Assembly: GCA_003242735.2 (NCBI GenBank)
Contig: QGVH02000005.1
Coordinates: forward strand, 17,055-81,054
DNA from: a bacterium
Lineage (GTDB): Bacteria > Gemmatimonadota > Gemmatimonadetes > Longimicrobiales > RSA9
Reading direction: 5' to 3'
DNA: 64,000 nt
Both the position numbers and the translations under genes were made by a program. Shown here piece after piece: positions 1 through 56,945 of the stretch; within the stretch, counting starts at the first letter, position 1; each line of letters begins with the position of its first letter. Below the pieces are notes generated by a model. That model was not told the origin of the DNA. It did no database searches and saw only the letters and a list, made by a program, of their open reading frames with translations.

Positions 1-475
1 CCGCCGCTTCACTCGGCGCTGCGGTCGCCGCGCCGATCCCTGAGCTCGTCTCTCTCGCCATCTCGACGGTCTCCTCGGTTCTCGTGCCGTCCCGGCGGCA
101 GCGTCGCCGCCGGGGAAAGGGTGATCTCTGCCCCCGCGCGCACCCGCTCTCCGGCGCACGGCGCGCGACGACGATTCCTCGGATCTATCGTGACCGGCGG
201 CGCTTACGGCCGCCGGATCCATGCCATTCCTCACCCCCGGGGTCGCCCAAACCTAACGTGAACCACCCCACCTCGCCACCCCGCGCCGCCCCCGCCACGG
301 GGTGCACACAGCGCCGCTGACGACGATCTCACCGACCCGACCACGGGACGGACCGCCGCCCGAACGCCGCCACGAGCCCCGCCCCACACCGTGTCGCTTT
401 CTCCTATGGCGCCGTCCAGCCGGCAAGGACATCCTCTACCCCGACCGTCCACCACCCGCATCCCGGAGCCGTCAC

Positions 476-1540
476 GTGAACGCCCTCGACCGCATCCTCG
501 GACCGAGCGACGCCGCCGCCGCACTCCGGGAGTTCGGTCGGCGCGCCGCCGCCGTCGACGCACCCGTCCTCCTCACCGGCGAAACCGGTACCGGCAAGGG
601 AGTGCTCGCCCGCGCGATCCACGAAGCATCGCGCCGGGCTCGCGGCCCCTTCGTCGCCATCAACTGCGCAGGCATCCCGGAGACCCTCTTCGAGAGCGAG
701 TTCTTCGGCCACACCCGCGGCGCCTTCACCGGCGCACAACAGTCCCACCGCGGCCTCTTCGAGCAGGCCGCCGGCGGCACCCTGTTCCTCGACGAGATCG
801 CGGAACTGCCGCTCCCGCTCCAGGCCAAGCTCCTCAACGCCCTCGAGGACGGCGAGATCCGCCGCCTCGGCGGCGAACGCACCGTCCGCGTGGACGTCCG
901 CATCATCGCCGCCGCAGGCATCGACCTCGAGCGCGCCGTCGCCGAGCGCCGCTTCCGCCGCGACCTCTACCACCGCCTGCTCGTCCTCTCCTGCCGTCTG
1001 CCCCCGCTCCGCGACCGCCACGGCGATATCGAGTTCCTCGCCCACCAGTTCCTGGACCGCTTCGCCCAACGCTACCAGGCCCCCGCCCGCACGTTCTCAC
1101 CCGCCGCCCTCGCCCGGCTCCAGGCCTACCCGTGGCCCGGCAACATCCGCGAGCTCGCCCACGCCGTCGAGGCCGCCGTCCTCGCTTGCGACGGCCCCAC
1201 CATCGGCGTCGCCCACCTCCCCACCACCGTCACCAGCACGCCCCCGCCGCTCACCCATGCCCCGATGGCACACGAGCCCAGCGCCGCCTACGCGTCCGCC
1301 CCACCAGCGCCCGACGGCGCCGGCGAGCCGCGTCCGCCGTTCCACCTCCCCCGCGGCCGCTACTCGTTCTACGGCTCCGAAGAGGAGGAACGGCGCCGCA
1401 TCGAGGAGGCGCTCCGCTTCTACCGCGGCAACAAGTCGCGCGCCGCCGCAGCGCTCGGCATGGCCCGCAACACACTCCGGCTCAAGCTCCGCCACTTCGG
1501 CCTCGATGGCCACAAGCGCGCGGAACCGGCCGGCCGCTGA
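476..1540 (+). CDS. sigma-54-dependent transcriptional activator (bEBP): AAA+ core plus C-terminal Fis-type HTH, no N-terminal sensory or receiver domain
   Basis: ORF 302..1540. Walker [15 protein letters not shown] loop ([10 protein letters not shown]), Walker B LFLDEI, C-terminal [23 protein letters not shown]. The in-frame GTG at 476 is preferred as start because the residues encoded by 302-475 look like Pro/Arg-rich non-coding translation. The start is uncertain. Confidence 0.9.
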
Positions 1541-1640
1541 CCACCCCGTGTCCCTGACCGCTATGGCCCCACGAACCATGACACGCCGGCAATTCGTTGC
1601 GCCACGGACCGTTGCGACCATGCGCCACGCCTCCACCCGC

Positions 1641-1873
1641 TCCGGCACGCCGCATGACCGATCCCCCGGCGCCACGAGCCGCGACCGGGGCGGATCGACG
1701 ACGTCGCCGCAACCCGCGTGGCCACCGCAACCCTGGATGCATCCCGGCCGGCGCCCGAACGCTGCTCGGCCCGGCCGCCGTCGGCCGTCGCTCGATTCGC
1801 CGCAGCGCCCGGCGCGCCTCGCGGGCACGATCGCCCACGCCCGCTCCGCGGGCCACACACCGGGAGGTTTGCC
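1641..1873 (+). promoter_or_regulatory. conserved leader A: GGCACG-N5-TGA element (1643-1658), palindrome GCCCGC-TCC-GCGGGC (1839-1853), SD GGGAGG (1862-1867)
   Basis: Alignable at nucleotide level with 3520-3659 upstream of the paralogous small gene. Copy A carries an insertion of about 85 nt between the two conserved blocks. Confidence 0.5.
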
Positions 1874-2200
1874 ATGCGCCACAGCAGCATCACGGGCTCC
1901 GTGCCCGCTCTCGCGCTCGTCCTCGCGTTCGCCGCCGCCGCGTGGGCCGACTGCGCGCCCTACATCTCCACGGGCATCAACGACCCGCCGGGCGTCGGCA
2001 CACTCATCGGCACCGAAACGCGGACCGAGGTCGTGCGGGAGACCATCGAGATCGTCGTCTCGGGCTCCGGTTCTGGCGCCGGCGGCTCGGTCAAGCGGAC
2101 GATCACCCGCGAGACGACACGCAGCTACCAGGTCGGCACGTACCTCATGAGCGACGGCTCGCGGGTCAGGGTCGATTGCAGCACCTACAGGTACATCTGA
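1874..2200 (+). CDS. small secreted protein (108 aa), Cys-bracketed, paralog of 3660..3953
   Basis: Internal ATG of ORF 1718..2200 preceded by GGGAGG. Sec signal peptide MRHSSITGSVPALALVLAFAAAAWA|DC. Shares the motifs LIGTE and VGTYLMxDGSRxRxxC with the paralog. Confidence 0.75.
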   Translation: MRHSSITGSVPALALVLAFAAAAWADCAPYISTGINDPPGVGTLIGTETRTEVVRETIEIVVSGSGSGAGGSVKRTITRETTRSYQVGTYLMSDGSRVRVDCSTYRYI

Positions 2201-2221
2201 GCAGGACCGGGGACCCGCTCG

Positions 2222-2248
2222 GTGGCGGCCGGACCGCCCGGCCGCCAC
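2222..2248 (+). terminator. GC hairpin after small gene A (11-bp perfect stem GTGGCGGCCGG/CCGGCCGCCAC, no U tract)
   Basis: Read directly from the sequence. An analogous hairpin follows the paralog at 3968-4001. Confidence 0.4.
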
Positions 2249-2282
2249 GCCCGTCCGGAACCACCAACCAGAGCGAGGCACC

Positions 2283-3311
2283 ATGCGCACCCGAACCCTC
2301 TCCGCCCTGCTGCTCCTCGCCGCCTGCGCCGCCTCCGACACCGAGCACCGATCCGCCGCCGACCCGCCGCTCATCGCCCGGGAGCTGATCGCCAGACGGG
2401 TCGCGAGCATCGCCGATGACTCGTTCCCGCTCACCACGCCGATCCGCATCCGACTCCTCGGAGACACCCTCGTCGTGGCGGACATCGGCGACGACCGCAT
2501 CGCGCTCTTCGACCGCGACCTCGAGCTGCTCCACGTCTTCGGCAGGAGCGGCGCCGGCCCCGGCGAGCTCCAGGGAGCGTTCGAGCTCGTGTGCGCGGAC
2601 GGCCTCATCGCCGTCGGCGACATGACCAACCAGCGGATCTCCTTCTTCACCCCGGACGGCCAGCTCGTCCGCGAGATCCGACTGGACGAGGCGCTCCGCA
2701 GCTTCGTGGTGGGCCCGGACGGATCGGTCTACCATGTGTCCATTTCGGGCCGCGACGCCCTCTTCACCGTCATCGCGCCGGACGGCACGCGCCGGCCCTG
2801 GGGCACCCGCCCGCCCGGGCTGCGGCCGGGCACGGACGACGGCAGGCGCGTCATCGAACAGGACGAAGTCCTTGCCCTCCGTACGCCCGACGGCGCGGTC
2901 CACGTGCTGGACAACCGGGAAGGCGTGCTCATCCGGTTCGACTCCGCCGGCGCCGTGCAACACACCGTGCAACTGCCACGCTGGCTGCTCGAGCCCATCC
3001 GCAAGCGGCACGAGGCACTCGCCCGCAGCCTGGCCCGGCAGGGCCTGCACGTCTACCCGGGCACCATCGCCAAGGACCTGTCCCTCACCTCCGACGGCCG
3101 TCTGCTCCTCGCCGTCGCCTCCGGCGATGTCGTCGCCGTCGTCGTGGACCCGGCGACCTACTCGCCCCGCGAGATCCGCGTCCCCGCCGGAGAGGGCCCA
3201 TGGGACGCGGCGCGCCGGGCCGTCAGCCTCGCGCTGCACGGCGACACCCTTTACGCCGTGACCACCGACGGCCTCTACGCCTTCGTCCTCGAGCCGGCGC
3301 AAGCCGGCTGA
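2283..3311 (+). CDS. NHL-repeat beta-propeller lipoprotein
   Basis: Lipobox LLLAAC near the N-terminus. Repeated NHL-like units (VVADIGDDRIALFD, GAGPGELQGAFEL, VGDMTNQRISFFTPDG). Confidence 0.8.
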   Translation: MRTRTLSALLLLAACAASDTEHRSAADPPLIARELIARRVASIADDSFPLTTPIRIRLLGDTLVVADIGDDRIALFDRDLELLHVFGRSGAGPGELQGAFELVCADGLIAVGDMTNQRISFFTPDGQLVREIRLDEALRSFVVGPDGSVYHVSISGRDALFTVIAPDGTRRPWGTRPPGLRPGTDDGRRVIEQDEVLALRTPDGAVHVLDNREGVLIRFDSAGAVQHTVQLPRWLLEPIRKRHEALARSLARQGLHVYPGTIAKDLSLTSDGRLLLAVASGDVVAVVVDPATYSPREIRVPAGEGPWDAARRAVSLALHGDTLYAVTTDGLYAFVLEPAQAG

Positions 3312-3331
3312 TCCTTCCAGCCCCTCCCTAC

Positions 3332-3385
3332 GACGCTCCGCGCCGCGCTCTCCCTGGGACGCGTCTCCACCCGGCGCGGAGCGTC
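3332..3385 (+). terminator. long hairpin downstream of the NHL gene (14-bp perfect arms GACGCTCCGCGCCG/CGGCGCGGAGCGTC)
   Basis: Inverted repeat read from the sequence, with an inner GACGCGTC palindrome in the loop. No U tract. It could alternatively be a protein-binding site upstream of leader B. Confidence 0.35.
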
Positions 3386-3519
3386 TCGACCACGAACGGA
3401 CGGAACTGCCCGGTCGTTGACCGCCCAACGCCCCATCCCGCCCTGCCCCCTGCCGCGACGATTGGGCTATAGGTCGCTGAATCACCGAAACTTACGACAG
3501 CGTGGCCCGGAGCAGGTCG

Positions 3520-3659
3520 CCCGGCACGCCGCGTGACTTCCCGATGGCCGCCACGGGCCGTGACGGGGCGGAGTGCGACGACGTCGCGGAGGACTCGCCC
3601 GGCGCGGACCGGAGGCGCGTCCATCACGCCCGCTCCGCGGGCCATGCCGGGAGGTTCCC
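3520..3659 (+). promoter_or_regulatory. conserved leader B: GGCACG-N5-TGA element (3522-3537), palindrome GCCCGC-TCC-GCGGGC (3628-3642), SD GGGAGG (3649-3654)
   Basis: Nucleotide-level homolog of 1641-1873. Confidence 0.5.
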
Positions 3660-3953
3660 ATGCGCAACTTCAACGTCAGGGCCTTCGTGCCCGCACTCGT
3701 CCTGTTGCTCGCGATCGCCACGGCCGTGCGCGCGAATTGCGCGAAGGAGCTGGCCCTGGGCGGGACGGACGGCACAGCGATCCTGATCGGGACGGAAGAG
3801 CGGAGGCAGGAGACCTACTTCCCGATCGTGGCGCCGCCGCTGGTCACCATGGGCTTCATCAAGATCGTGCACACCACCGAGGTGGGCACGTACCTGATGC
3901 CCGATGGGTCGCGGATCCGGATCACGTGCCAGGAGCAGTTCTCGCTCGGCTGA
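3660..3953 (+). CDS. small secreted protein (97 aa), Cys-bracketed, paralog of 1874..2200
   Basis: Internal ATG of ORF 3573..3953 after GGGAGG. Signal peptide MRNFNVRAFVPALVLLLAIATAVRA|NC. Motifs ILIGTEE and VGTYLMPDGSRIRITC. Confidence 0.75.
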   Translation: MRNFNVRAFVPALVLLLAIATAVRANCAKELALGGTDGTAILIGTEERRQETYFPIVAPPLVTMGFIKIVHTTEVGTYLMPDGSRIRITCQEQFSLG

Positions 3954-3967
3954 GCGGCAGCCGCCGT

Positions 3968-4001
3968 GGCCGGCCGCCGCGGCCCACGCGGGCGGCCGGC
4001 C
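3968..4001 (+). terminator. GC hairpin after small gene B (11-bp perfect stem GGCCGGCCGCC/GGCGGCCGGCC)
   Basis: Read directly from the sequence. No U tract. Confidence 0.4.
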
Positions 4002-4033
4002 CGGCCGGGGCGCAACGATACGAGGAGCGATCG

Positions 4034-4693
4034 ATGAAGCCACGCACCTTCGCCGTCACGCTCGTGAGCATCGCCATTGCCGGCGCGGCCGCCGTCCTCC
4101 ACACCGCCCTCCGCGGCCCCGATCCGATCCGCACGGTGCACATCGGCGCCGCGGTCGCGGAACGGGCCGCGGACGCCGGCGTCGCCATCGGCCCCGCGGA
4201 CGCAGCCATCGTCGTCCGCGTCTTCTCCGACTTCCAGTGTCCCGCCTGCCGACGGCTGGACGCCGAGGCCGGTGTCGTCCTCAGGCGCTGGGCCGCTGAT
4301 GGCCTGATCCGCTACGTCCACATCCACGCCCCCCTCCCCGCACACCGCCGCGGCCCCGCCGCAGCCGCGGCCTCCCACTGCGCCGCACGAGCCGGCAGGC
4401 CGTGGGACATGCACCGCATGCTCGCCGACCGCCTCCCGGAGTGGACCCAGGGCGAGCCGCCGGAGCCGAGGTTCGTGACCTACGCCCACGCCCTCGGCCT
4501 CGACACCACCACATTCGCCCTCTGCCTCACCGACCCCGCCACCGCCGAGCAGGTCCAGCGCGACCGGGCCGCCGCCCGCGCCCTCGCGCCGGACCGGGTG
4601 CCCGTCGTCTACGTCAACGAGGCCCTGATCGAGGGCCTGCGAGACCCCGCCCAGCTCGTGGACCACGTCCGGCGCCTCCTCCGCCTGCCCTGA
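4034..4693 (+). CDS. membrane-anchored DsbA-family thiol:disulfide oxidoreductase
   Basis: Internal ATG of ORF 3533..4693 after GAGGAG. N-terminal TM helix FAVTLVSIAIAGAAAVL. Thioredoxin active site FSDFQCPACRRL. Confidence 0.85.
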   Translation: MKPRTFAVTLVSIAIAGAAAVLHTALRGPDPIRTVHIGAAVAERAADAGVAIGPADAAIVVRVFSDFQCPACRRLDAEAGVVLRRWAADGLIRYVHIHAPLPAHRRGPAAAAASHCAARAGRPWDMHRMLADRLPEWTQGEPPEPRFVTYAHALGLDTTTFALCLTDPATAEQVQRDRAAARALAPDRVPVVYVNEALIEGLRDPAQLVDHVRRLLRLP

Positions 4694-4807
4694 CCCCGGT
4701 CAATGGCGCACCTTCGCGCTCCCGGTTAAGTTCACGCGTGGCGCCGCGCGGCACCGACCCCTACGGCCGCCGGCCGCCACGTACGGACTCCACTCCCTCG
4801 ATTCGTC

Positions 4808-6736
4808 ATGCTGGACACGATTCTCGAGACACTTCGCCGGCACGTCATCAGCCGGAAACTGGAGCCTGGTGATGTCGAGTACCTGGCATCCCAGGCCCGC
4901 GCCATCTGTTATCTGCCCGGCGCGTACATCTTCCGTGAGAGTCAGCCACGCCGCGAATTCGGCATCATCGTCCGCGGCCGCGTCGAGATCCGCAAACGGC
5001 ACCGCGGCCGCAACCAGGTCCTCGCCCTGCTCGGACCCGGCGACTCCTACGGCGAGGGCACGCTCCTCGACGACTACCCGCACTCGACCTCCGCCTACGT
5101 CATGGAGCCCGTCGAGGCGATCGAGTTCCCGCGCGAGACCATCATGCGCATCGCCGAAGAGCGGCCGATGCTCTACGCGCGGCTCGCCATCGCGGCCGCC
5201 CAGATCATCGCGATGCGGCTCCGCGCCGCCAACGCGCGCATCGCCGGCGGAGAGCAGATCTACCTGTCCGGCGAGCTGCGGCGTGAGAAGGACCTGCTCG
5301 GCGAACGCGAGGTCCCCGACCGCGAGTACTATGGGATCCAGACGCTGCGCGCCATCGAGAACTTCCCCATCACGGGCATCACGATCGCGCAGTATCCCCA
5401 CCTCATCGTCGCGCTCGCCGCAGTCAAGGAAGCCGCGGCCCGGGCCAATCAGGAGCTGGGCCTCCTCGACCCGACCATCGCGAACGCCATCATCGCCGCG
5501 TGCCAGGAGATCCGCGGCGGGGCGCTGCACAGCCACTTCGTCGTGGATGTCATCCAGGGCGGCGCGGGCACCTCGACGAACATGAACGCCAACGAGGTGA
5601 TCGCGAACCGCGCGCTGGAGATCCTCGGCAGACGCCGCGGCGAGTACCACATCGTGCACCCCAACAACCACGTCAACCTCTCCCAGTCCACCAACGACGT
5701 CTATCCCACCGCGCTCAAGATCGCGCTCATCTGGATGCTCCGCGACCTGGAGGTGGCGCTCGCCGCGCTGCGCGATGCGTTCCTGCTCAAGGCGGACGAG
5801 TTCGCCGACATCGTCAAGATCGGCCGGACCCAGCTCCAGGACGCCGTGCCGATGACGCTCGGCCAGGAGTTCCACGCCTTCGGCATCACGTTGGGTGAAG
5901 ACATCGAACGGCTGCGCGAGGCGGCCGGCCTCTTGTGCGAGATCAACCTGGGCGCCACCGCCATCGGCACGGGCATCAACACCGACCCGCGCTACGCGGC
6001 GCTGGTCCGTGAGCGCCTGGCGGAGATCACCGGCCTGCCGCTCGTCACCAGCCCCGACCTCGTCGAGGCCACGGCGGACACGGGCGTGTTCGTCCAGCTC
6101 TCGGGCGTGCTCAAGCGGGTCGCGACCAAGCTCTCCAAGATCTGCAACGACCTGCGCCTGCTCTCCAGCGGGCCGCGCGCCGGCCTCGGCGAGATCTCGT
6201 TGCCGCCCATGCAGCCGGGCTCGAGCATCATGCCGGGCAAGGTGAACCCGGTCATCCCCGAGGTCGTCAACCAGGTCTGCTACCAGGTGGTCGGCAACGA
6301 CCTCACGGTGACGATCGCGGCCGAGGCGGGCCAGCTCCAGCTCAACGTGTTCGAGCCGGTCATCGCCTTCAACCTCTTCCAGTCCATCGACATGCTCGAG
6401 CAGGCGTGCATCGTGCTGCGTGAACGCTGCGTTCTCGGCATCACGGCGAACCGCGAGCGCATCCGTCACCTGCTCGAGCGGAGCATCGGCATCGTCACCG
6501 CGCTCGTCCCGTACATCGGGTACGACCGCGCGAGCGCCGTTGCCCGCGAGGCGCTGGAGACCGACCGGGGAGTCTACGAGCTGGTGCTGGAGAAGGGCTG
6601 GCTGACCCGGGAGGAGCTGGACGAGATCCTGTCACCCGAGGCGATGACGCGACCGCGCCCGATGCCCGTGCTGCGCGGTCGCTTCGACAGCCAGGAGGAA
6701 GTCGCGGCGGCCCCGCACCAGCCGGCGCAGGGGTGA
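4808..6736 (+). CDS. aspA: aspartate ammonia-lyase fused to an N-terminal cyclic-nucleotide-binding-like (CAP effector) domain
   Basis: Residues from about 160 to the end match class-II fumarase/aspartase, including the signature GSSIMPGKVNP and the TNMNANEVIANRA and SQSTNDVYPTA motifs. The first 150 aa or so have the beta-roll pattern of cNMP-binding domains (GDSYGEGTLL...STSAYV). Confidence 0.9.
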   Translation: MLDTILETLRRHVISRKLEPGDVEYLASQARAICYLPGAYIFRESQPRREFGIIVRGRVEIRKRHRGRNQVLALLGPGDSYGEGTLLDDYPHSTSAYVMEPVEAIEFPRETIMRIAEERPMLYARLAIAAAQIIAMRLRAANARIAGGEQIYLSGELRREKDLLGEREVPDREYYGIQTLRAIENFPITGITIAQYPHLIVALAAVKEAAARANQELGLLDPTIANAIIAACQEIRGGALHSHFVVDVIQGGAGTSTNMNANEVIANRALEILGRRRGEYHIVHPNNHVNLSQSTNDVYPTALKIALIWMLRDLEVALAALRDAFLLKADEFADIVKIGRTQLQDAVPMTLGQEFHAFGITLGEDIERLREAAGLLCEINLGATAIGTGINTDPRYAALVRERLAEITGLPLVTSPDLVEATADTGVFVQLSGVLKRVATKLSKICNDLRLLSSGPRAGLGEISLPPMQPGSSIMPGKVNPVIPEVVNQVCYQVVGNDLTVTIAAEAGQLQLNVFEPVIAFNLFQSIDMLEQACIVLRERCVLGITANRERIRHLLERSIGIVTALVPYIGYDRASAVAREALETDRGVYELVLEKGWLTREELDEILSPEAMTRPRPMPVLRGRFDSQEEVAAAPHQPAQG

Positions 6737-6819
6737 AGCCACGCCGATGCCGGCGGGGTCACACCCCCGCCGGCGCGGGCCGGGCTCGACGGCGCGGAGA
6801 CGTGGCCGTGCCGGTTCCG

Positions 6820-8235
<1,416 letters not shown>

Positions 8236-8536
8236 GCGCGGAGAACAGGGCCGATCCGGTCGTGTCCATCCGTGCTCGATCGGGCCCGGAACTCCCTTGA
8301 CGACGTTCCTACCCGTCTCTACTGTATCAGCGATTCATCCAGCCGTTTCAGTCCGTGCCCAGTTTGGTCGGCGAACGCTGAGCCGGACCCGGAATTGACC
8401 ATTACGGTGGGGCCTGCGCAAGGGCAGGCACCCTTCAACTGTTCCCTGTGTCGGGCGGGAACCGTTGGTGCCGCCCGTGCCGAGTGCGGGCGCGAGACCC
8501 ACTCAACAATCTCACCAGATCGGGGGGAGCGAAGTC

Positions 8537-8824
8537 ATGAACAAGTCTGAGTTGATCCAGACGCTGGCCAACAAGGCCAAGATGACCAAGGCCGATGCGG
8601 CGCGTGCGGTCGAGGCGCTCTTCGGCGTCAGTGGCGGCATCATCGCGACGGCGCTCCGCAAGGGCGACCGCGTCCAGATCACCGGGTTCGGTACGTTCGA
8701 GACCAAGAAGCGCAAGGCCCGCACTGGCCGCAACCCGCGCACGGGCAAGGAGATCCAGATCCGTGCGACGACGACGCCTTCGTTCCGCGCCGGCAAGGGC
8801 CTGAAGGACGCGGTCAAGCGCTGA
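8537..8824 (+). CDS. hup: HU/IHF-family nucleoid protein
   Basis: MNKSELIQTLA...GFGTFETKKRKARTGRNPRTGKEIQI. Internal ATG of ORF 8465..8824. Confidence 0.95.
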   Translation: MNKSELIQTLANKAKMTKADAARAVEALFGVSGGIIATALRKGDRVQITGFGTFETKKRKARTGRNPRTGKEIQIRATTTPSFRAGKGLKDAVKR

Positions 8825-8854
8825 TCGGCCCGCGCATCACACTCTGCCTCGAAG

Positions 8855-8894
8855 GACGAGAGCCACGTCCCCACCCGGCGACGTGGCTCTCGTC
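8855..8894. terminator. 15-bp perfect hairpin between the convergent hup and helicase-like genes
   Basis: GACGAGAGCCACGTC-(10 nt)-GACGTGGCTCTCGTC. No clear U tract. Confidence 0.55.
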
Positions 8895-9003
8895 GTCTCA
8901 CCCTTCCTGTACCGGCCCGCCGCAGGAGCGGCGCGCCCGTCCCGCGCCGGCGAGACCCGCGCTCTCTGGCACGGCCGCGTCCCGCTCGGCGCGCGCTCCC
9001 ACC

Positions 9004-12096: not shown

Positions 12097-12132
12097 GAGA
12101 AGGGCGCGGAGGGGAATCCTCCGCGCCCTTCT
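12096..12132. terminator. 16-bp perfect hairpin immediately after the symporter stop codon
   Basis: GAGAAGGGCGCGGAGG-GGAAT-CCTCCGCGCCCTTCTC. Confidence 0.55.
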
Positions 12133-12206
12133 CGGCACTCGGCCCGGGCTCACGCGGAGACCAGGGGGCGCAGCGACACGGAGCAGCACGGAGGACGGCT
12201 CCGCTG

Positions 12207-26260: not shown

Positions 26261-26357
26261 GGACCACCTCCCGAGGCGTTGGGTCGTCAAAGCCCCGCCG
26301 ACGGCGGCGCCGTCGGCGGGGCCCCGATGCCATCTGCTTGCAGCGAGCGGGCCGCGG

Positions 26358-27337: not shown

Positions 27338-27373
27338 GCCACCGAGGCAGGAGCTGCTCCCTGCCTCGGTGGC
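27338..27373. repeat. 14-bp perfect inverted repeat GCCACCGAGGCAGG-(8 nt)-CCTGCCTCGGTGGC
   Basis: Read from the sequence. Lies about 95-130 nt upstream of the start of the minus-strand gene 26358..27245. Confidence 0.6.
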
Positions 27374-37347: not shown

Positions 37348-38909
37348 CCCCCGCCCGCCGATGAGCCGCCGGAGCGCCCGCGGATACCTTCCGCGGGCGC
37401 TCCGCGCTTCTTCCCCGGATCCGCCGCACGAGTCGCCCCAGACGCGAACGCGGTCCGCTCGGCGACCTCGCGCAGGAGCGCCAACGCATCCGGGTACGCG
37501 ATGTCCTTCGCCGCCGCTTCCCGCAACAGCCCGCCCGCGGCGGTGTCCACCACCACGTCGGCCAGGCCGTGGCGCCGCTGGAACGGCGACTGGACGAGGT
37601 GCACCGTCTGAATGCGCCGGTCCGGCACGATCCACGTGATGCGGTCGAGCAAGCCGGCGCGGGTGACGACGAACCCGGGCGCCAGCGCGTAGCCGAGGTT
37701 CCGGTAGTACCGCCCTGCGGCGAGCCAGGCCACCGGCAGCACGGGCAGGAACGGCAACCAGCGCGGCTCCACCACGAACGTGAGAGCCACCGCAGCGAGC
37801 CCGAACACGATCGTGTAGCGCACGAACGCGCGCCGGCGCGCCCGCGGATGCGCGGGCAGGAACACGAGCCCGTCGTAGTCCAGGCCGCCCAGCACGGCCT
37901 CCACCAGCCGCTGCACATCGGCCGCGCGCGCGATCGGCAGGAACGCCTCGGCGCCGCCGCGCCGCCGCTCCTGCGGCGCCCCGCCCGCCGTCTCCACCTT
38001 CAGCGCGGCGAGGCGGAACGGCCGGCGGATCCACGACTCTTCCACGCGCACGGCCTGCACGCGCTCGAGCGGAACCACCGCCTCGCGCCGGCTCAGCAGT
38101 CCGTACCGCTTGCGCAGCTCGGAGGACGTCTGCTCCAGCGTGAAGCCGTGGTACGTGATCAGTGCGCCGAGGATCGAGGAGAGCCAGCCGATCAGCAGGA
38201 CCGCGAGCACGATGCCTGCCACGGCCACCACGATGTCTCCGCCGGAGAGCTCCGCGATGCGCTCTGGATCCGGGAGGAAGTCGGGAACGTCGATCCGCAG
38301 GTCGTCCAGGACCTGGAGCGCACCGCCCAGCGCCGCGGCCACGATCCCCGCCTCGCTCGCCGTCGCGCCCGCGACGATCAGGTCCTGCGTGGACAGCCGC
38401 GCCAGCTCGCGAACCGGCTCCGTCTCCTCCGTCTGAACACCGACGCCGCCCCCCACCAGCGCAGCACGGCGCCCCGCCAGCAGCGCCTCGCGCAACGATT
38501 CCGCGTGCGCGCGGTCCAGCACCCGCAGCGCGGCCTCGGTCTCGCCCGACCCCGCCGTCTCGACACGCAGCTCCACGACTCCGCAGAGGCGCTGGAGCGG
38601 CGACTCGCGCACATCGATGTTCTGGATCCGCGCCAGCGGGATCACCCGCCGCTGACGGCTGAGGACGCCCGAGTCAATGATCAGCTCATCGCCCGTGAGC
38701 CGGTAACGGAACGAGAAGTAACGTGCAACCGCGAGAAGGATCGCCGGGACGGAGAGCAGCGCGAGGGTCCACGTGAGCACGCTCTCCACTTCGCCGCCGC
38801 CGGCCGAGACACCGCCGAACAGCGCCGGGACGACGAACGCCCGCGCCGTCGCGACCGCGTCGAACAGCACGGTGTACGGATGGAGCCGCTGCGGCTCAGA
38901 CAGCATCAT
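37329..38909 (-). CDS. YdbT-like membrane protein with repeated bacterial PH (bPH_2) domains
   Basis: [16 protein letters not shown]... Three repeats of a TM hairpin followed by a PH-like unit (e.g. [31 protein letters not shown]). The ATG overlaps the ydbS-like stop region. Confidence 0.8.
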
Positions 38910-54756: not shown

Positions 54757-55069
54757 GGCCGAACGTCCTCCGATTCCTCCGTGGACCCGCGCCCCCCATC
54801 CCCCAGCACACCGCGCGCCAGGTCCACCCAGGAACATAGCCGCACGCCCCTCCCCCGGCCAAGCCCCACCGAGGCCCCCACCCGACCCAGTGCCAGTTCG
54901 ACCGAAATCGGCCAGTCTGGTCCGAAAAACCTGATTGACGGTCCGACCCTACGGTTTACTTTGCGAGGTTGGCGGCGCGAAGACGGGCAGCCCCCGCTCC
55001 GCCGCACCTTCCACCCCCCGCATCCGTGGTCCAGACGGCCACTGCCGGGCCGTGCCGACGAGGGCCGCC

Positions 55070-55444
55070 GTGCCAGCCAAGACCGTGCTCGTCATTTCGG
55101 GCAACGAGGACGACCGTTTCATCTGGAACGCGGTCCTCCAGCACTACGGGTACACGGCCGTGCTGGCGGATTCGCTGGCGGCGGTGCCTGCGCGGATCGA
55201 TGCGGACCTCGTCCTGCTCGCGCTGGACCGCTTCGACCCTCCCCGCGCCCGGCTGCTTCGGGAAGTGATCAAGGATCGCCGGGTCCGCGGCGTACCCGTC
55301 GTCGGCGTCGTCGACCCGGATGTCCACCCCTCCGAGCTGCTACACGCCGGCTGCGCCGCCGTCCTCTCCCGGCCACTCCGCCCCGCCGCGCTGGAGGCCG
55401 AGGTCCGGCGCCTGATCGGCCCGGCGGCGCCGCCGGCGAACTGA
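55070..55444 (+). CDS. stand-alone receiver-domain protein (atypical response regulator)
   Basis: GTG start in ORF 54935..55444. KTVLVISGNEDD (acidic pocket) and DLVLLALD (phospho-acceptor Asp position). The conserved Thr/Ser and Lys positions look substituted (VVGVVD, SRPLRP). Confidence 0.65.
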   Translation: MPAKTVLVISGNEDDRFIWNAVLQHYGYTAVLADSLAAVPARIDADLVLLALDRFDPPRARLLREVIKDRRVRGVPVVGVVDPDVHPSELLHAGCAAVLSRPLRPAALEAEVRRLIGPAAPPAN

Positions 55445-55860: not shown

Positions 55861-55876
55861 TGGCACGCCGCCTGCC
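55861..55876 (+). promoter_or_regulatory. near-consensus sigma-54 promoter TGGCACG-CCGC-CTGC
   Basis: Matches TGGCACG-N4-TTGC in both the -24 GG and the -12 GC, with correct spacing. Located in a gene-free gap. About one chance match is expected per window from base composition. Confidence 0.35.
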
Positions 55877-56297: not shown

Positions 56298-56945
56298 ATG
56301 ACCACCGTCCTCTTCGACCTGGATGGCACGCTCGTCGCCACGCGGCGGCTGTATCTCGAGTGCTACCGACGCGCGCTGGCGCCGCACGTCGGCCGCGCGC
56401 TCAGCGACGAAGAGATCCTCGCCTACAAGCCGCGCTCCGAGATCCGGCTGATCCAGGCGATCGCCGGCGAGGATGCCGTCGCCGCCTGCCTCGCCGCGTT
56501 CTACCGCCACTACGAGGCGCTGCACGACGAGCTCTTCCAGGGGATCTATCCCGGCATCCCCGAGCTGCTCGCGTCGCTCCGCCAGCGCCGGACGCCCATC
56601 GGCGTCGTCACCGGCAAGAGCCGCCGTTCCTGGGAGATCACCACCGCCCGCGCCCATCTCGGCCCCTTCGACGTCGTCATCCTCGACGACGACGTTTCCG
56701 CTCCCAAGCCCGACCCCGAGGGCATCCTCCTCGCCCTGTCTCGGCTCCGCGCCGATCCCGCCGCCACGCTCTACGTCGGCGACAGCATCAGCGACGTGAT
56801 CGCCGCCCGCGCCGCCGGCGTCCGCCCGGCCGCGGTCCTCTGGTCCAAGCGCGAATCCGAGCGGGAGAGCTTCGCCGCGCGGGCCCGCGCCGAGGGCGCC
56901 CTCCTCCTCCATGAGCCGGACGACCTCATCGCCGCGCTGGGCTGA
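56298..56945 (+). CDS. HAD-superfamily phosphatase (phosphoglycolate phosphatase-like)
   Basis: Motif I LFDLDGTLV, motif II VVTGKS, motif III/IV K...YVGDSISDV. Internal ATG of ORF 56121..56945. Confidence 0.88.
   Translation: MTTVLFDLDGTLVATRRLYLECYRRALAPHVGRALSDEEILAYKPRSEIRLIQAIAGEDAVAACLAAFYRHYEALHDELFQGIYPGIPELLASLRQRRTPIGVVTGKSRRSWEITTARAHLGPFDVVILDDDVSAPKPDPEGILLALSRLRADPAATLYVGDSISDVIAARAAGVRPAAVLWSKRESERESFAARARAEGALLLHEPDDLIAALG

Follow-up and report, generated by a model that had tools for sequence, protein, structure and literature searches.

The locus considered here raises the question of what could unite two small, paralogous, apparently exported proteins, each with a cysteine near either end, with the genes for envelope proteins that follow them. 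The two small genes, A and B, lie in a 64,000-nucleotide stretch of contig QGVH02000005.1 (positions 17,055 to 81,054), from a member of the Gemmatimonadota (Longimicrobiales, RSA9). This whole stretch is termed the window, and positions refer to it unless a related locus, denoted by an L-number, is named; all genes, leaders and post-gene hairpins of the window's operon described below are on the + strand. By the criteria of sequence comparison, the small proteins constitute an undescribed family that is largely restricted to Gemmatimonadota, and their genes are constantly paired with the gene for a specific NHL-repeat propeller lipoprotein.

A family of small two-cysteine proteins

Small gene A (1874-2200) encodes a 108-residue protein that is a canonical member of the family, with a signal peptide, Cys27, a variable T/G/S-rich centre and a C-terminal segment, VGTYLMSDGSRVRVDC, which contains Cys102. 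Small gene B (3660-3953, with the ATG at 3660) encodes a divergent, clade-specific paralog of 97 residues that retains both cysteines, and whose centre is hydrophobic and Pro-containing in contrast to that of A. The two proteins align over 103 columns with 39% identity (BLASTP, E=7e-18) and share the blocks G(T)(L/I)LIGTE and VGTYLMxDGSR(V/I)R(V/I)xC, confirming the paralogy, shared motifs and reading frames that had been reported in a sequence-only reading of the window. B-type proteins were seen solely in the window's clade (the window, L001 and L003), within which A and B proteins are ~36-43% identical; the G+C content of the region is ~72%. Export of both by the Sec pathway is predicted from signal peptides that were assigned by eye using the AXA rule and comprise a basic n-region and a hydrophobic core, followed by putative cleavage between AWA and DC in A and between VRA and NC in B.

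Word-indexed searches recovered just 6 sequences related to A and 5 related to B; these are all metagenomic, and one is labelled Longimicrobiales. A profile search with HMMER against 1.84 billion representatives (clusters at the 50% identity level) extended the family to 62 clusters at E<=1e-3, with 22 at E<=1e-10. The hits are 84-165 residues long, mostly ~90-125, and the mature proteins ~70-95; three long matching proteins were set aside. The family is unified by the consensus C-A-x-Y-I-S-S-G-x-x-D-x-P-x-x-G-x-L-x-G-T-E-T ... T-Y-x-V-G-x-Y-x-M-x-D-G-S-x-x-x-x-D-C-R-x-Y-T, whose two segments flank a variable central insert of 12-39 residues (46% Gly+Thr+Ser), and the only invariant positions in the 62-sequence alignment are C27, L44, G88, Y90 and C102. 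The cysteine bracket noticed in A and B is thus a family-wide feature, both cysteines being present in 62 of 62 representatives and exactly two in 53 of the 62, with 55-85 residues between them and the second at a median of 6 residues from the C-terminus. The location of the first cysteine at mature position 2, which had also been proposed, holds in the window clade and not elsewhere, other members reading '...ALPC'. A hydrophobic N-terminal stretch precedes the first cysteine in 61 of 62 members, and in an exported protein with two invariant cysteines these are probably joined in an end-to-end disulfide.

None of the resources searched offered a name for these proteins. There were no real Pfam matches among the 62 members and no NCBIfam or PADLOC matches for the small proteins; the best match of the family profile to PDB sequences (0.13) was not significant, and neither were the Foldseek matches of the structural model (best E 0.38 in PDB and 0.05 in BFVD). 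In every source consulted the members lack a functional name, one being a 'hypothetical protein' and the rest unnamed. It is because of this consistent lack of matches across Pfam, NCBIfam, PADLOC, PDB and Foldseek that we regard the family as undescribed, in keeping with the failure of the sequence-only reading to recognise it.

Linkage to an NHL propeller lipoprotein

The neighbourhoods of the family share one constant element. In the window this is the gene at 2283-3311, encoding a 342-residue lipoprotein with a 6-bladed NHL-repeat β-propeller and the lipobox LLAAC. An ortholog immediately follows the small gene, in the same orientation, in 18 of the 18 loci with downstream sequence, namely the window, L001, L003, L007, L008, L010, L012-L016, L018, L057, L058, L060, L084, L090 and L091; this was determined with hidden Markov models (HMMs) of both families and repeated with a cleaned propeller profile. 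The orthologs are full-length except for a frameshift in L091 and cuts at the contig end in short contigs, and in the neighbourhoods of relatives 35-69% identical to A the next downstream gene on the same strand always encodes ~330-365 residues. The genes flanking the pair vary, including gyrB (L012, L014, L016, L018), nadA (L013), HU and DbpA (L008), ankyrin- and PSD-domain genes (L007) and a trypsin-like gene (L090), and therefore the small gene and the propeller gene move as a unit; they overlap or nearly abut in L007, L013 and L057. The expectation of an envelope partner conserved with the small gene is thus borne out for the propeller, and on these comparative grounds the pair forms a conserved, putatively envelope-located module. 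With the lack of a match to any known family, the retention of both cysteines and the conservation of the neighbourhood, none of the outcomes that would have refuted the sequence-only reading was observed.

The identity of the partner is well defined. A profile of six orthologs (A5) matches the NHL domains of Thin, TRIM71 and TRIM2/3 in the PDB at 1e-36 to 9e-28, with 2-5 matched stretches per domain. Its N-terminus reads LLLLAAC, followed by AASD, in agreement with lipoprotein signal peptides, which end in L-[AS]-[GA]-C; the lipobox cysteine is invariant in the six orthologs and lipidation is predicted. The initial description of this gene as encoding an NHL β-propeller lipoprotein therefore stands. 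The motifs GRxGxGPGE and NxRI are invariant among the orthologs. Weak DUF5128, NHL and ScyF matches were also detected for the propeller gene, the DUF5128 match of the window protein being below the Pfam cut-off; DUF5128 is reported by Pfam in 7 of 11 propeller sequences, a count slightly contaminated by an HExxH protein (L013:9456-10460). The profile further matches an exported Bacteroides protein of the DUF5128 type (4raa, 6e-5) and peptidylglycine-amidating lyase (PAL, 7e-6). In PAL, Zn is bound by a conserved triad of His residues, and a Tyr and an Arg are catalytic. The invariant residues of the propeller are R88, G92, P93, V111, R118 and P232, with no His and no Cys beyond the lipobox, and a PAL-type enzyme was rejected given that no His is conserved and the match is weak. 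Since neither a His nor a non-lipobox Cys is conserved, the sequence of the propeller suggests a platform for binding and not a metalloenzyme or thiol enzyme.

The linkage was also approached from the propeller side with one genome per species, which gave 42 loci, nearly all from Gemmatimonadota (Longimicrobiales, Candidatus (Ca.) Palauibacter and Gemmatimonadales). Full-length orthologs were recovered in L015, L016 and L018, with the small gene in 3 of 3; no small gene was found in the other 39 loci, which contain more distant NHL paralogs, often arranged in tandem and numbering up to seven. Arrays of 5-7 NHL-propeller paralogs, spaced ~1.2 kb apart and without a small-family gene, were observed in L029, L031, L038 and L039 (Gemmatimonadota, Ca. 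Palauibacter), and represent a large lineage-specific expansion of the propeller.

In the Ca. Palauibacter loci L016 and L018 the order is small gene, propeller and a second, shortened small gene (L016 5032-5250; L018 4976-5200). In front of this second gene, the region upstream of the first is repeated, including the GAGGGCGnC...GTCGCCCTC hairpin and GGGGAGGTGGA. Gene and leader were here duplicated independently, in parallel to the event that gave rise to gene B. Such duplicated or degenerate copies, together with the tight linkage to a lipoprotein and a small, exported product with a predicted disulfide and a hypervariable 12-39-residue centre rich in G, T and S, are also features that could be expected of an exported toxin or bacteriocin-like protein for which the propeller lipoprotein provides immunity, with B as an extra or orphan toxin allele. 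We consider this improbable. No toxin domain, double-glycine leader, ABC exporter, lysis gene or secretion system is encoded in any locus, and B has no second propeller gene. The leader peptide is of the Sec type (AXA) and the loci contain no exporter or immunity-like gene as would be found with a class II microcin or bacteriocin; moreover, with a Sec signal the product would end up in the periplasm of the producing cell itself. Such conservation of the termini throughout the phylum is unlike that of fast-evolving toxin/immunity pairs, and neither PADLOC nor the PDB yields a match.

Predicted structure of the small protein

An AlphaFold2 (AF2) model based on 11 sequences had a predicted local distance difference test score (pLDDT) of 62, and one based on the 62-sequence alignment a pLDDT of 78, with 86-91 over the conserved strands. 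The strands of the latter model span residues 30-32, 41-63, 72-92 and 97-101, of which 41-63 and 72-92 form a long hairpin. The model thus depicts a small β core, apparently made up of the conserved N- and C-terminal segments, from which a variable β arm would protrude, and the invariant cysteine pair is placed at the edges of this predicted core. The predicted arm is charged on both of its faces, and for this reason a transmembrane hairpin was rejected. The weak Foldseek matches, to hybrid Tudor domains, pore-forming toxin stems and phage tube proteins, reflect the long β hairpin only and were likewise set aside.

Accessory genes and the history of the operon

Beyond the propeller, three further kinds of genes recur in the neighbourhoods. 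The first is the thiol-disulfide oxidoreductase gene at 4034-4693, whose 219-residue product has an N-terminal hydrophobic anchor and the motif CPAC within FQCPACR. The product conforms to the features of the DsbA family, namely a thioredoxin (Trx) fold with a helical insertion, a CxxC motif and an extracytoplasmic location, matching Thioredoxin_4 at 1.9e-18 (67.7 bits; cut-off 23.2) and DSBA at 4e-9 (36.9 bits; cut-off 25.6), and DsbA/BdbD proteins of the PDB at 4e-8 to 4e-7, from which its activity is predicted. The earlier assignment of this gene as a membrane-anchored, DsbA-like CPAC oxidoreductase is upheld. Homologs are the next gene after the propeller in L090, where the small protein (P0034) is 35% identical to A and the active site reads CAAC, and in L091, where the small protein (P0016) is 45% identical to A (phmmer 4e-15 and 1e-42, respectively). 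The DsbA-like gene is therefore part of the operon in three independent lineages, namely the window clade, L090 and L091. A DSBA-family gene 3 kb upstream in L008/L010 was discounted, being not homologous to the window gene (E=0.029, with no CxxC aligned).

Given that a DsbA homolog adjoins the propeller gene in L090 and L091, the ancestral order was probably small gene, propeller, DsbA. Gene B is a clade-specific duplicate inserted between the propeller and DsbA genes (window, L001, L003). This departs from the initial impression that each small gene possesses an accessory gene of its own.

The second recurrent gene (302-1540) encodes a σ54-dependent activator, or bacterial enhancer-binding protein (bEBP), with the AAA+ σ54-interaction domain, AAA lid and Fis-type helix-turn-helix (HTH) of this class. 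Matches to Sigma54_activat (8.7e-65), HTH_8 (1.6e-10) and AAA_lid_14 were obtained, and GAFTGA is present in the translation; an N-terminal sensor or receiver domain is absent. Its true start probably lies ~50-60 codons downstream of 302, the orthologs in L003 and L001 having 354 and 366 residues. A bEBP gene adjoins the small-gene operon in the window clade; the bEBP gene beside the L090 operon is another one, whose product is extended at the N-terminus.

The third is a secreted, gluzincin-like HExxH protein (HE[IV][AG]H ... EAxAxWAE), encoded after the DsbA-like gene in L090 (3687-4580) and directly after the propeller in L013 (9456-10463). The two are 33% identical and have no significant Pfam match, Peptidase_MA_2 being sub-threshold in L013 (E=0.034). 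Their position could suggest a different role for the small protein, that of a periplasmic precursor which the DsbA-like enzyme folds, the propeller holds and the HExxH protein cuts to release a peptide or activated form, such as a signal or a cofactor subunit of an enzyme. The HExxH gene is found in just these 2 lineages and not in the 64 kb of the window, a conserved motif for cleavage was not identified, and the propeller is unlikely to be a PAL-type enzyme in view of its weak match noted above and the lack of an invariant His; accordingly, we see very little probability in this scheme.

The remaining lineages have no DsbA-like, HExxH or bEBP gene within the fetched flanks. The supposition of a shared DsbA/bEBP neighbourhood therefore fares unevenly: it holds for the DsbA-like gene in three lineages and for a bEBP in two, and fails in most.

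The presence of a Trx-fold gene in the operon in three independent lineages, beside a potential substrate with two invariant cysteines, also invites comparison with proteins such as NHLRC2, in which Trx-like and NHL domains are fused, and whose propeller cup and Trx-like domain were proposed by the authors of its structure to form a groove for a protein ligand (PMC6107167). By analogy, the operon might encode a split redox module of the NHLRC2/SOQ1 type, in which the propeller docks the small protein, as a dedicated redox substrate, for the Trx-fold enzyme and the disulfide state is the output. We regard this as unlikely, though within reasonable reach. Most lineages have no DsbA-like gene nearby, the Trx fold is of the DsbA/BdbD oxidase type and not the TlpA/DipZ-like type of NHLRC2, and the propeller matches TRIM-type NHL domains generically. 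The expected architecture is also not seen here, the genes being separate and CPAC occurring in a DsbA-type fold instead of a CC(I/V)NC-type motif in a fusion, and the resemblance is one of analogy.

Next to the DsbA-like gene in the window is a gene (4808-6736) for a cyclic nucleotide monophosphate (cNMP)-binding domain joined to a class II aspartase/fumarase (Lyase_1 plus FumaraseC_C). This unusual architecture is retained in L001 and L003, and its domain composition suggests a cNMP-regulated lyase activity.

Leaders, hairpins and expression

The spacers that precede A (333 nt) and B (348 nt) have in common a leader of ~140-230 nt. The gene A leader has at its 5' edge the motif GGCACGCCGCATGAC (1644-1658), which resembles a σ54 -24/-12 element with TGA for TGC at -12. 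The GC-rich leader itself (1659-1873) contains, as palindromes or potential stems, the blocks TCGACGACGTCG, TGGCCA, GGATGCATCC and CCGGCCGG...CCGGCCG, and ends with the hairpin CCCGC-TCC-GCGGG (1840-1852) and the Shine-Dalgarno (SD) sequence GGGAGG (1862-1867). The leader of gene B (3523-3659) is a duplicated and shortened version, with the motif GGCACGCCGCGTGAC (3523-3537), a GCGACGACGTCGC block, the CCCGC-TCC-GCGGG hairpin and an SD sequence, and without a central stretch of ~85 nt. The leader is conserved also in L001 (9770-10000 and 11810-12042, the A and B leaders being nearly identical), L003 (9765-10000), L060, L080 and L084, and is better conserved than the small proteins. Of the leaders of A- and B-type genes, 9 of 9 carry the pattern GG[CT]AC[GA]CCGC[GA]TGAC, and its spacing is the same in each. 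As gene and leader were duplicated together, A and B share cis-regulation, and their co-regulation through the common leader is well supported by these sequence comparisons.

For the leader itself, there was no relevant Rfam match at E<=1 in 1-9000; RNAalifold returned a multi-stem fold with just two covarying pairs, and a metagenome scan with a leader 19-mer gave 30 loci with 4 true leaders, a number insufficient to test for covariation. Neither a σ70-like promoter nor a canonical terminator was found, and a second 'GGCAC' block, ~50 nt ahead of the ATG, was discounted as a σ54 promoter since its distance to the next GC varies between copies. The leader may function as a novel cis-regulatory RNA or may consist of activator binding sites, and is in either case a candidate new cis-regulatory element; control of A and B by σ54 and the bEBP may be envisaged. 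Elsewhere in the window, TGGCACGCCGCCTGCC at 55861-55876 is a good σ54 -24/-12-like site that shares the core GGCACGCCGC with the leader motif, and is located in an ~800-nt intergenic region between a receiver-domain-like open reading frame (ORF; 54935-55444) and a HAD-type ORF (~56300-56945).

Gene A is covered by contigs from the RNA-labelled runs X29-X31 (compost, rhizosphere) and from X32, a run of unrecorded library type. Their 5' ends at gene A lie at 1829-1836 in X29, X30 and X32, that is within 8 nt of one another and just 5' of the SD-proximal hairpin, and at 1734 in X31, the contigs extending to 2170. The cluster at 1829-1836 might represent a processed or primary 5' end, and the four starts together are compatible with, though weakly indicative of, a long primary transcript alongside a shorter stable species. 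Runs X25-X28 ('METATRANSCRIPTOMIC WGS') show flat coverage over genes and spacers and are uninformative on expression.

As had been described, a GC hairpin and an envelope-protein gene come, in this order, after each small gene. That after A (2222-2248) is intercistronic, with a perfect 11-bp GC stem, a 5-nt loop and a z-score of -2.2; that after B (3968-4001) has a perfect 11-bp outer stem with 3 more pairs and one bulge, a z-score of -2.6 and counterparts in L001 and L003. The distances from stop to next ATG are 82 nt and 80 nt, respectively. Markov simulations gave 0-4 perfect stems of at least 10 bp (mean 1.5), compared with 10 in the actual 64 kb of the window. These ten perfect GC stem-loops are of 10-16 bp and without U-tracts (for example 6749-6774, 12097-12133, 26292-26322, 27338-27373 and 37370-37404), and are likely to be terminator or RNA-stabiliser elements of the organism; in high-GC bacteria, hairpins without U-tracts may still terminate transcription or stabilise RNA. 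As the excess of stems is window-wide, the hairpins after A and B are of the genome's general terminator type and not special to these genes.

A strong GC hairpin recurs after the small gene in the window, L001, L003, L008 and L018, with stems unrelated in sequence, which fits partial termination or 3' stabilisation favouring the small gene, and attenuation at these sites may be envisaged. The idea of an attenuating hairpin that yields the small product in excess is thus compatible with five lineages and fails where the small and propeller genes overlap. This bears directly on the possibility that the small protein is a polymerising subunit, fibre-, pilus- or amyloid-like, made in excess and anchored or assembled by the propeller lipoprotein. 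The hairpin in five lineages, the modelled ~22-residue β-hairpin arm, which would be unlikely to be stable alone, and the coverage of A by RNA-labelled contigs would all be consistent with such a subunit. Nevertheless, we give it only a slender probability: in L007, L013 and L057 the overlap without a hairpin implies roughly 1:1 synthesis, which speaks against it; the arm is charged on both faces; and no usher, secretin, sortase or curli-type export gene, and no match to a pilin or amyloid family, was found. The neighbourhood tables likewise contain no pilin, chaperone-usher or type IV pilus family of Pfam, and there is no structural match to such proteins. The overall likeness to a pilin, bacteriocin or secreted-effector locus, suggested by the gene layout, finds no support, as no usher, secretin, ABC exporter, immunity-type or toxin domain is encoded in any of the loci.

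A proposed mode of action

The reading that we favour, to which we would assign about an even chance, is that the small protein is a periplasmic β protein, stapled end to end by a disulfide, which acts as a ligand, subunit or substrate of its propeller lipoprotein. It would be exported by Sec and oxidised into the stapled form, in which the N-terminal segment (C-A-x-Y-I-S-S-G...G-x-L-x-G-T-E-T) would pack with the C-terminal segment (T-Y-x-V-G-x-Y-x-M-x-D-G-S...D-C-R-x-Y-T) to form the core, and a long, two-stranded, Thr/Gly/Ser-rich β arm of variable length would project from it. The stapled protein would act with the cognate propeller in the periplasm or at the outer membrane, most simply while bound on the propeller's face. 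Where present, in the window clade, L090 and L091, the DsbA-like enzyme of the operon might supply or edit the staple disulfide. In the window clade the small gene was duplicated together with its leader and inserted between the propeller and DsbA genes, with the shared cis-regulation of the two copies probably exerted by the adjacent sensor-less σ54 activator, and the terminator-type GC hairpin after each copy would leave the small protein in excess over the downstream product.

Several observations weigh against this reading or parts of it. The tie between small protein and propeller is one of gene adjacency, which would equally fit enzyme/substrate, toxin/immunity or chaperone/cargo relationships. 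The closeness of the two cysteines is deduced and not read from the coordinates of the AF2 model, and the long isolated β hairpin of that model may be an over-prediction or a sign of oligomerisation. Most lineages (L007, L008, L012-L014, L016, L018) have neither a DsbA-like gene nor a bEBP gene nearby, and these genes are therefore accessory, that is recurrent but optional. With regard to regulation, a canonical σ54 -24/-12 element (TGGCAC-N5-TTGC, with the invariant GG and GC 10 nt apart) is not present at <=2 mismatches in 1541-1873 or 3312-3659, and the conserved GGCACG-N4-[GA]TGAC has σ54 spacing but A for C at -12. Neither hairpin has a U-tract, a scan for terminator-like sites returned 0, and the hairpin is absent where the small gene and propeller overlap (L007, L013, L057). 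Finally, the RNA evidence consists of low-depth assembled contigs, which neither rank expression nor map the start of transcription.

Comparison with known systems

Taken singly, the NHL propeller, DsbA and bEBP encoded around the small family are ordinary components. What the analysis adds is a first functional handle on the family, whose genes are obligatorily linked to that of one particular NHL propeller lipoprotein. Communities of soil, compost and sponges are rich in Gemmatimonadota. To our knowledge the envelope biology of these bacteria has hardly been studied, and a conserved, apparently expressed module offers an entry point to it. Likewise, we know of functions for few bacterial NHL propellers; one with a genome-encoded candidate ligand, accompanied in some lineages by a DsbA-like protein and a metalloprotease, makes the question of what such propellers bind directly testable.

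Of the systems to which the operon may be likened, PspF and HrpS resemble its regulator in being sensor-less bEBPs, composed of an AAA+ domain (GAFTGA) and an HTH, encoded beside an envelope-protein operon. The bEBP here, however, is generic, falling below every equivalog cut-off, and has neither a PspA-like partner nor a canonical -24/-12 promoter.

MxaI with MxaF, MauA with MauB and QhpC with QhpB are pairs in which a small subunit belongs to a periplasmic propeller enzyme. The likeness is that the gene for a small subunit, exported or cross-linked, neighbours that for a propeller protein of ~340-600 residues. In the present family, however, there is no conserved Trp of the kind that forms tryptophan tryptophylquinone (TTQ) or cysteine tryptophylquinone (CTQ), there are two cysteines only, and no maturation genes for pyrroloquinoline quinone (PQQ), heme or radical-SAM chemistry are found in the operon, while the propeller is of the NHL type without conserved catalytic residues. 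A quinoprotein small subunit of the MauA or QhpC type was accordingly rejected for want of a conserved Trp, further cysteines and a maturation gene.

Among bacterial proteins of solved structure, the propeller is closest to an exported, six-bladed Bacteroidota DUF5128 protein (PDB 4raa, 6e-5), which also belongs to paralog families; the similarity is weak, and for the window protein below the Pfam cut-off. Small 'NVEALA' proteins are encoded beside DUF5128 genes in Bacteroides; no member of the small family matches any Pfam model. A search of the literature on NVEALA, DUF5128 and Gemmatimonadota with NHL gave nothing relevant, and no described counterpart of the obligatory pairing of the small family with a specific NHL propeller lipoprotein was found.

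A further parallel is offered by TolB with Pal and with the TolB box of colicins, in which a periplasmic six-bladed propeller has a small envelope partner; the central canyon of TolB is reported to accommodate a distorted hairpin of 12 residues (PMC2821528). The small family has turns of its own that are strictly conserved, namely M-x-D-G-S and G-T-E-T. It differs in that neither component is related in sequence to TolB or Pal, no Tol genes are present, the propeller here is itself the lipoprotein, and binding is predicted.

Analogs in architecture are NHLRC2 and SOQ1. SOQ1 acts in the thylakoid lumen on a small β-rich protein. As in the present operon, a Trx fold is combined in these proteins with a six-bladed NHL propeller, one that lacks an evident catalytic site and for which a protein ligand has been proposed. 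The differences are that separate genes are involved here, that the Trx-fold protein is of the DsbA/BdbD type with CPAC or CAAC and its gene is absent in most lineages, and that a candidate small partner is co-encoded, whereas no conserved gene neighbours of bacterial NHLRC2 were found by its authors (PMC6107167). A fuller version of the analogy, in which the operon would be a split counterpart of Trx-like/NHL proteins with an encoded client, a redox state set by DsbA and σ54 activation through an undescribed structured leader, strikes us as distinctly unlikely. The small gene/propeller module may also inform work on NHLRC2 and SOQ1, and if the split-module reading were true, it would be the first propeller/Trx system whose client can be read from the genome, and one that is genetically tractable.

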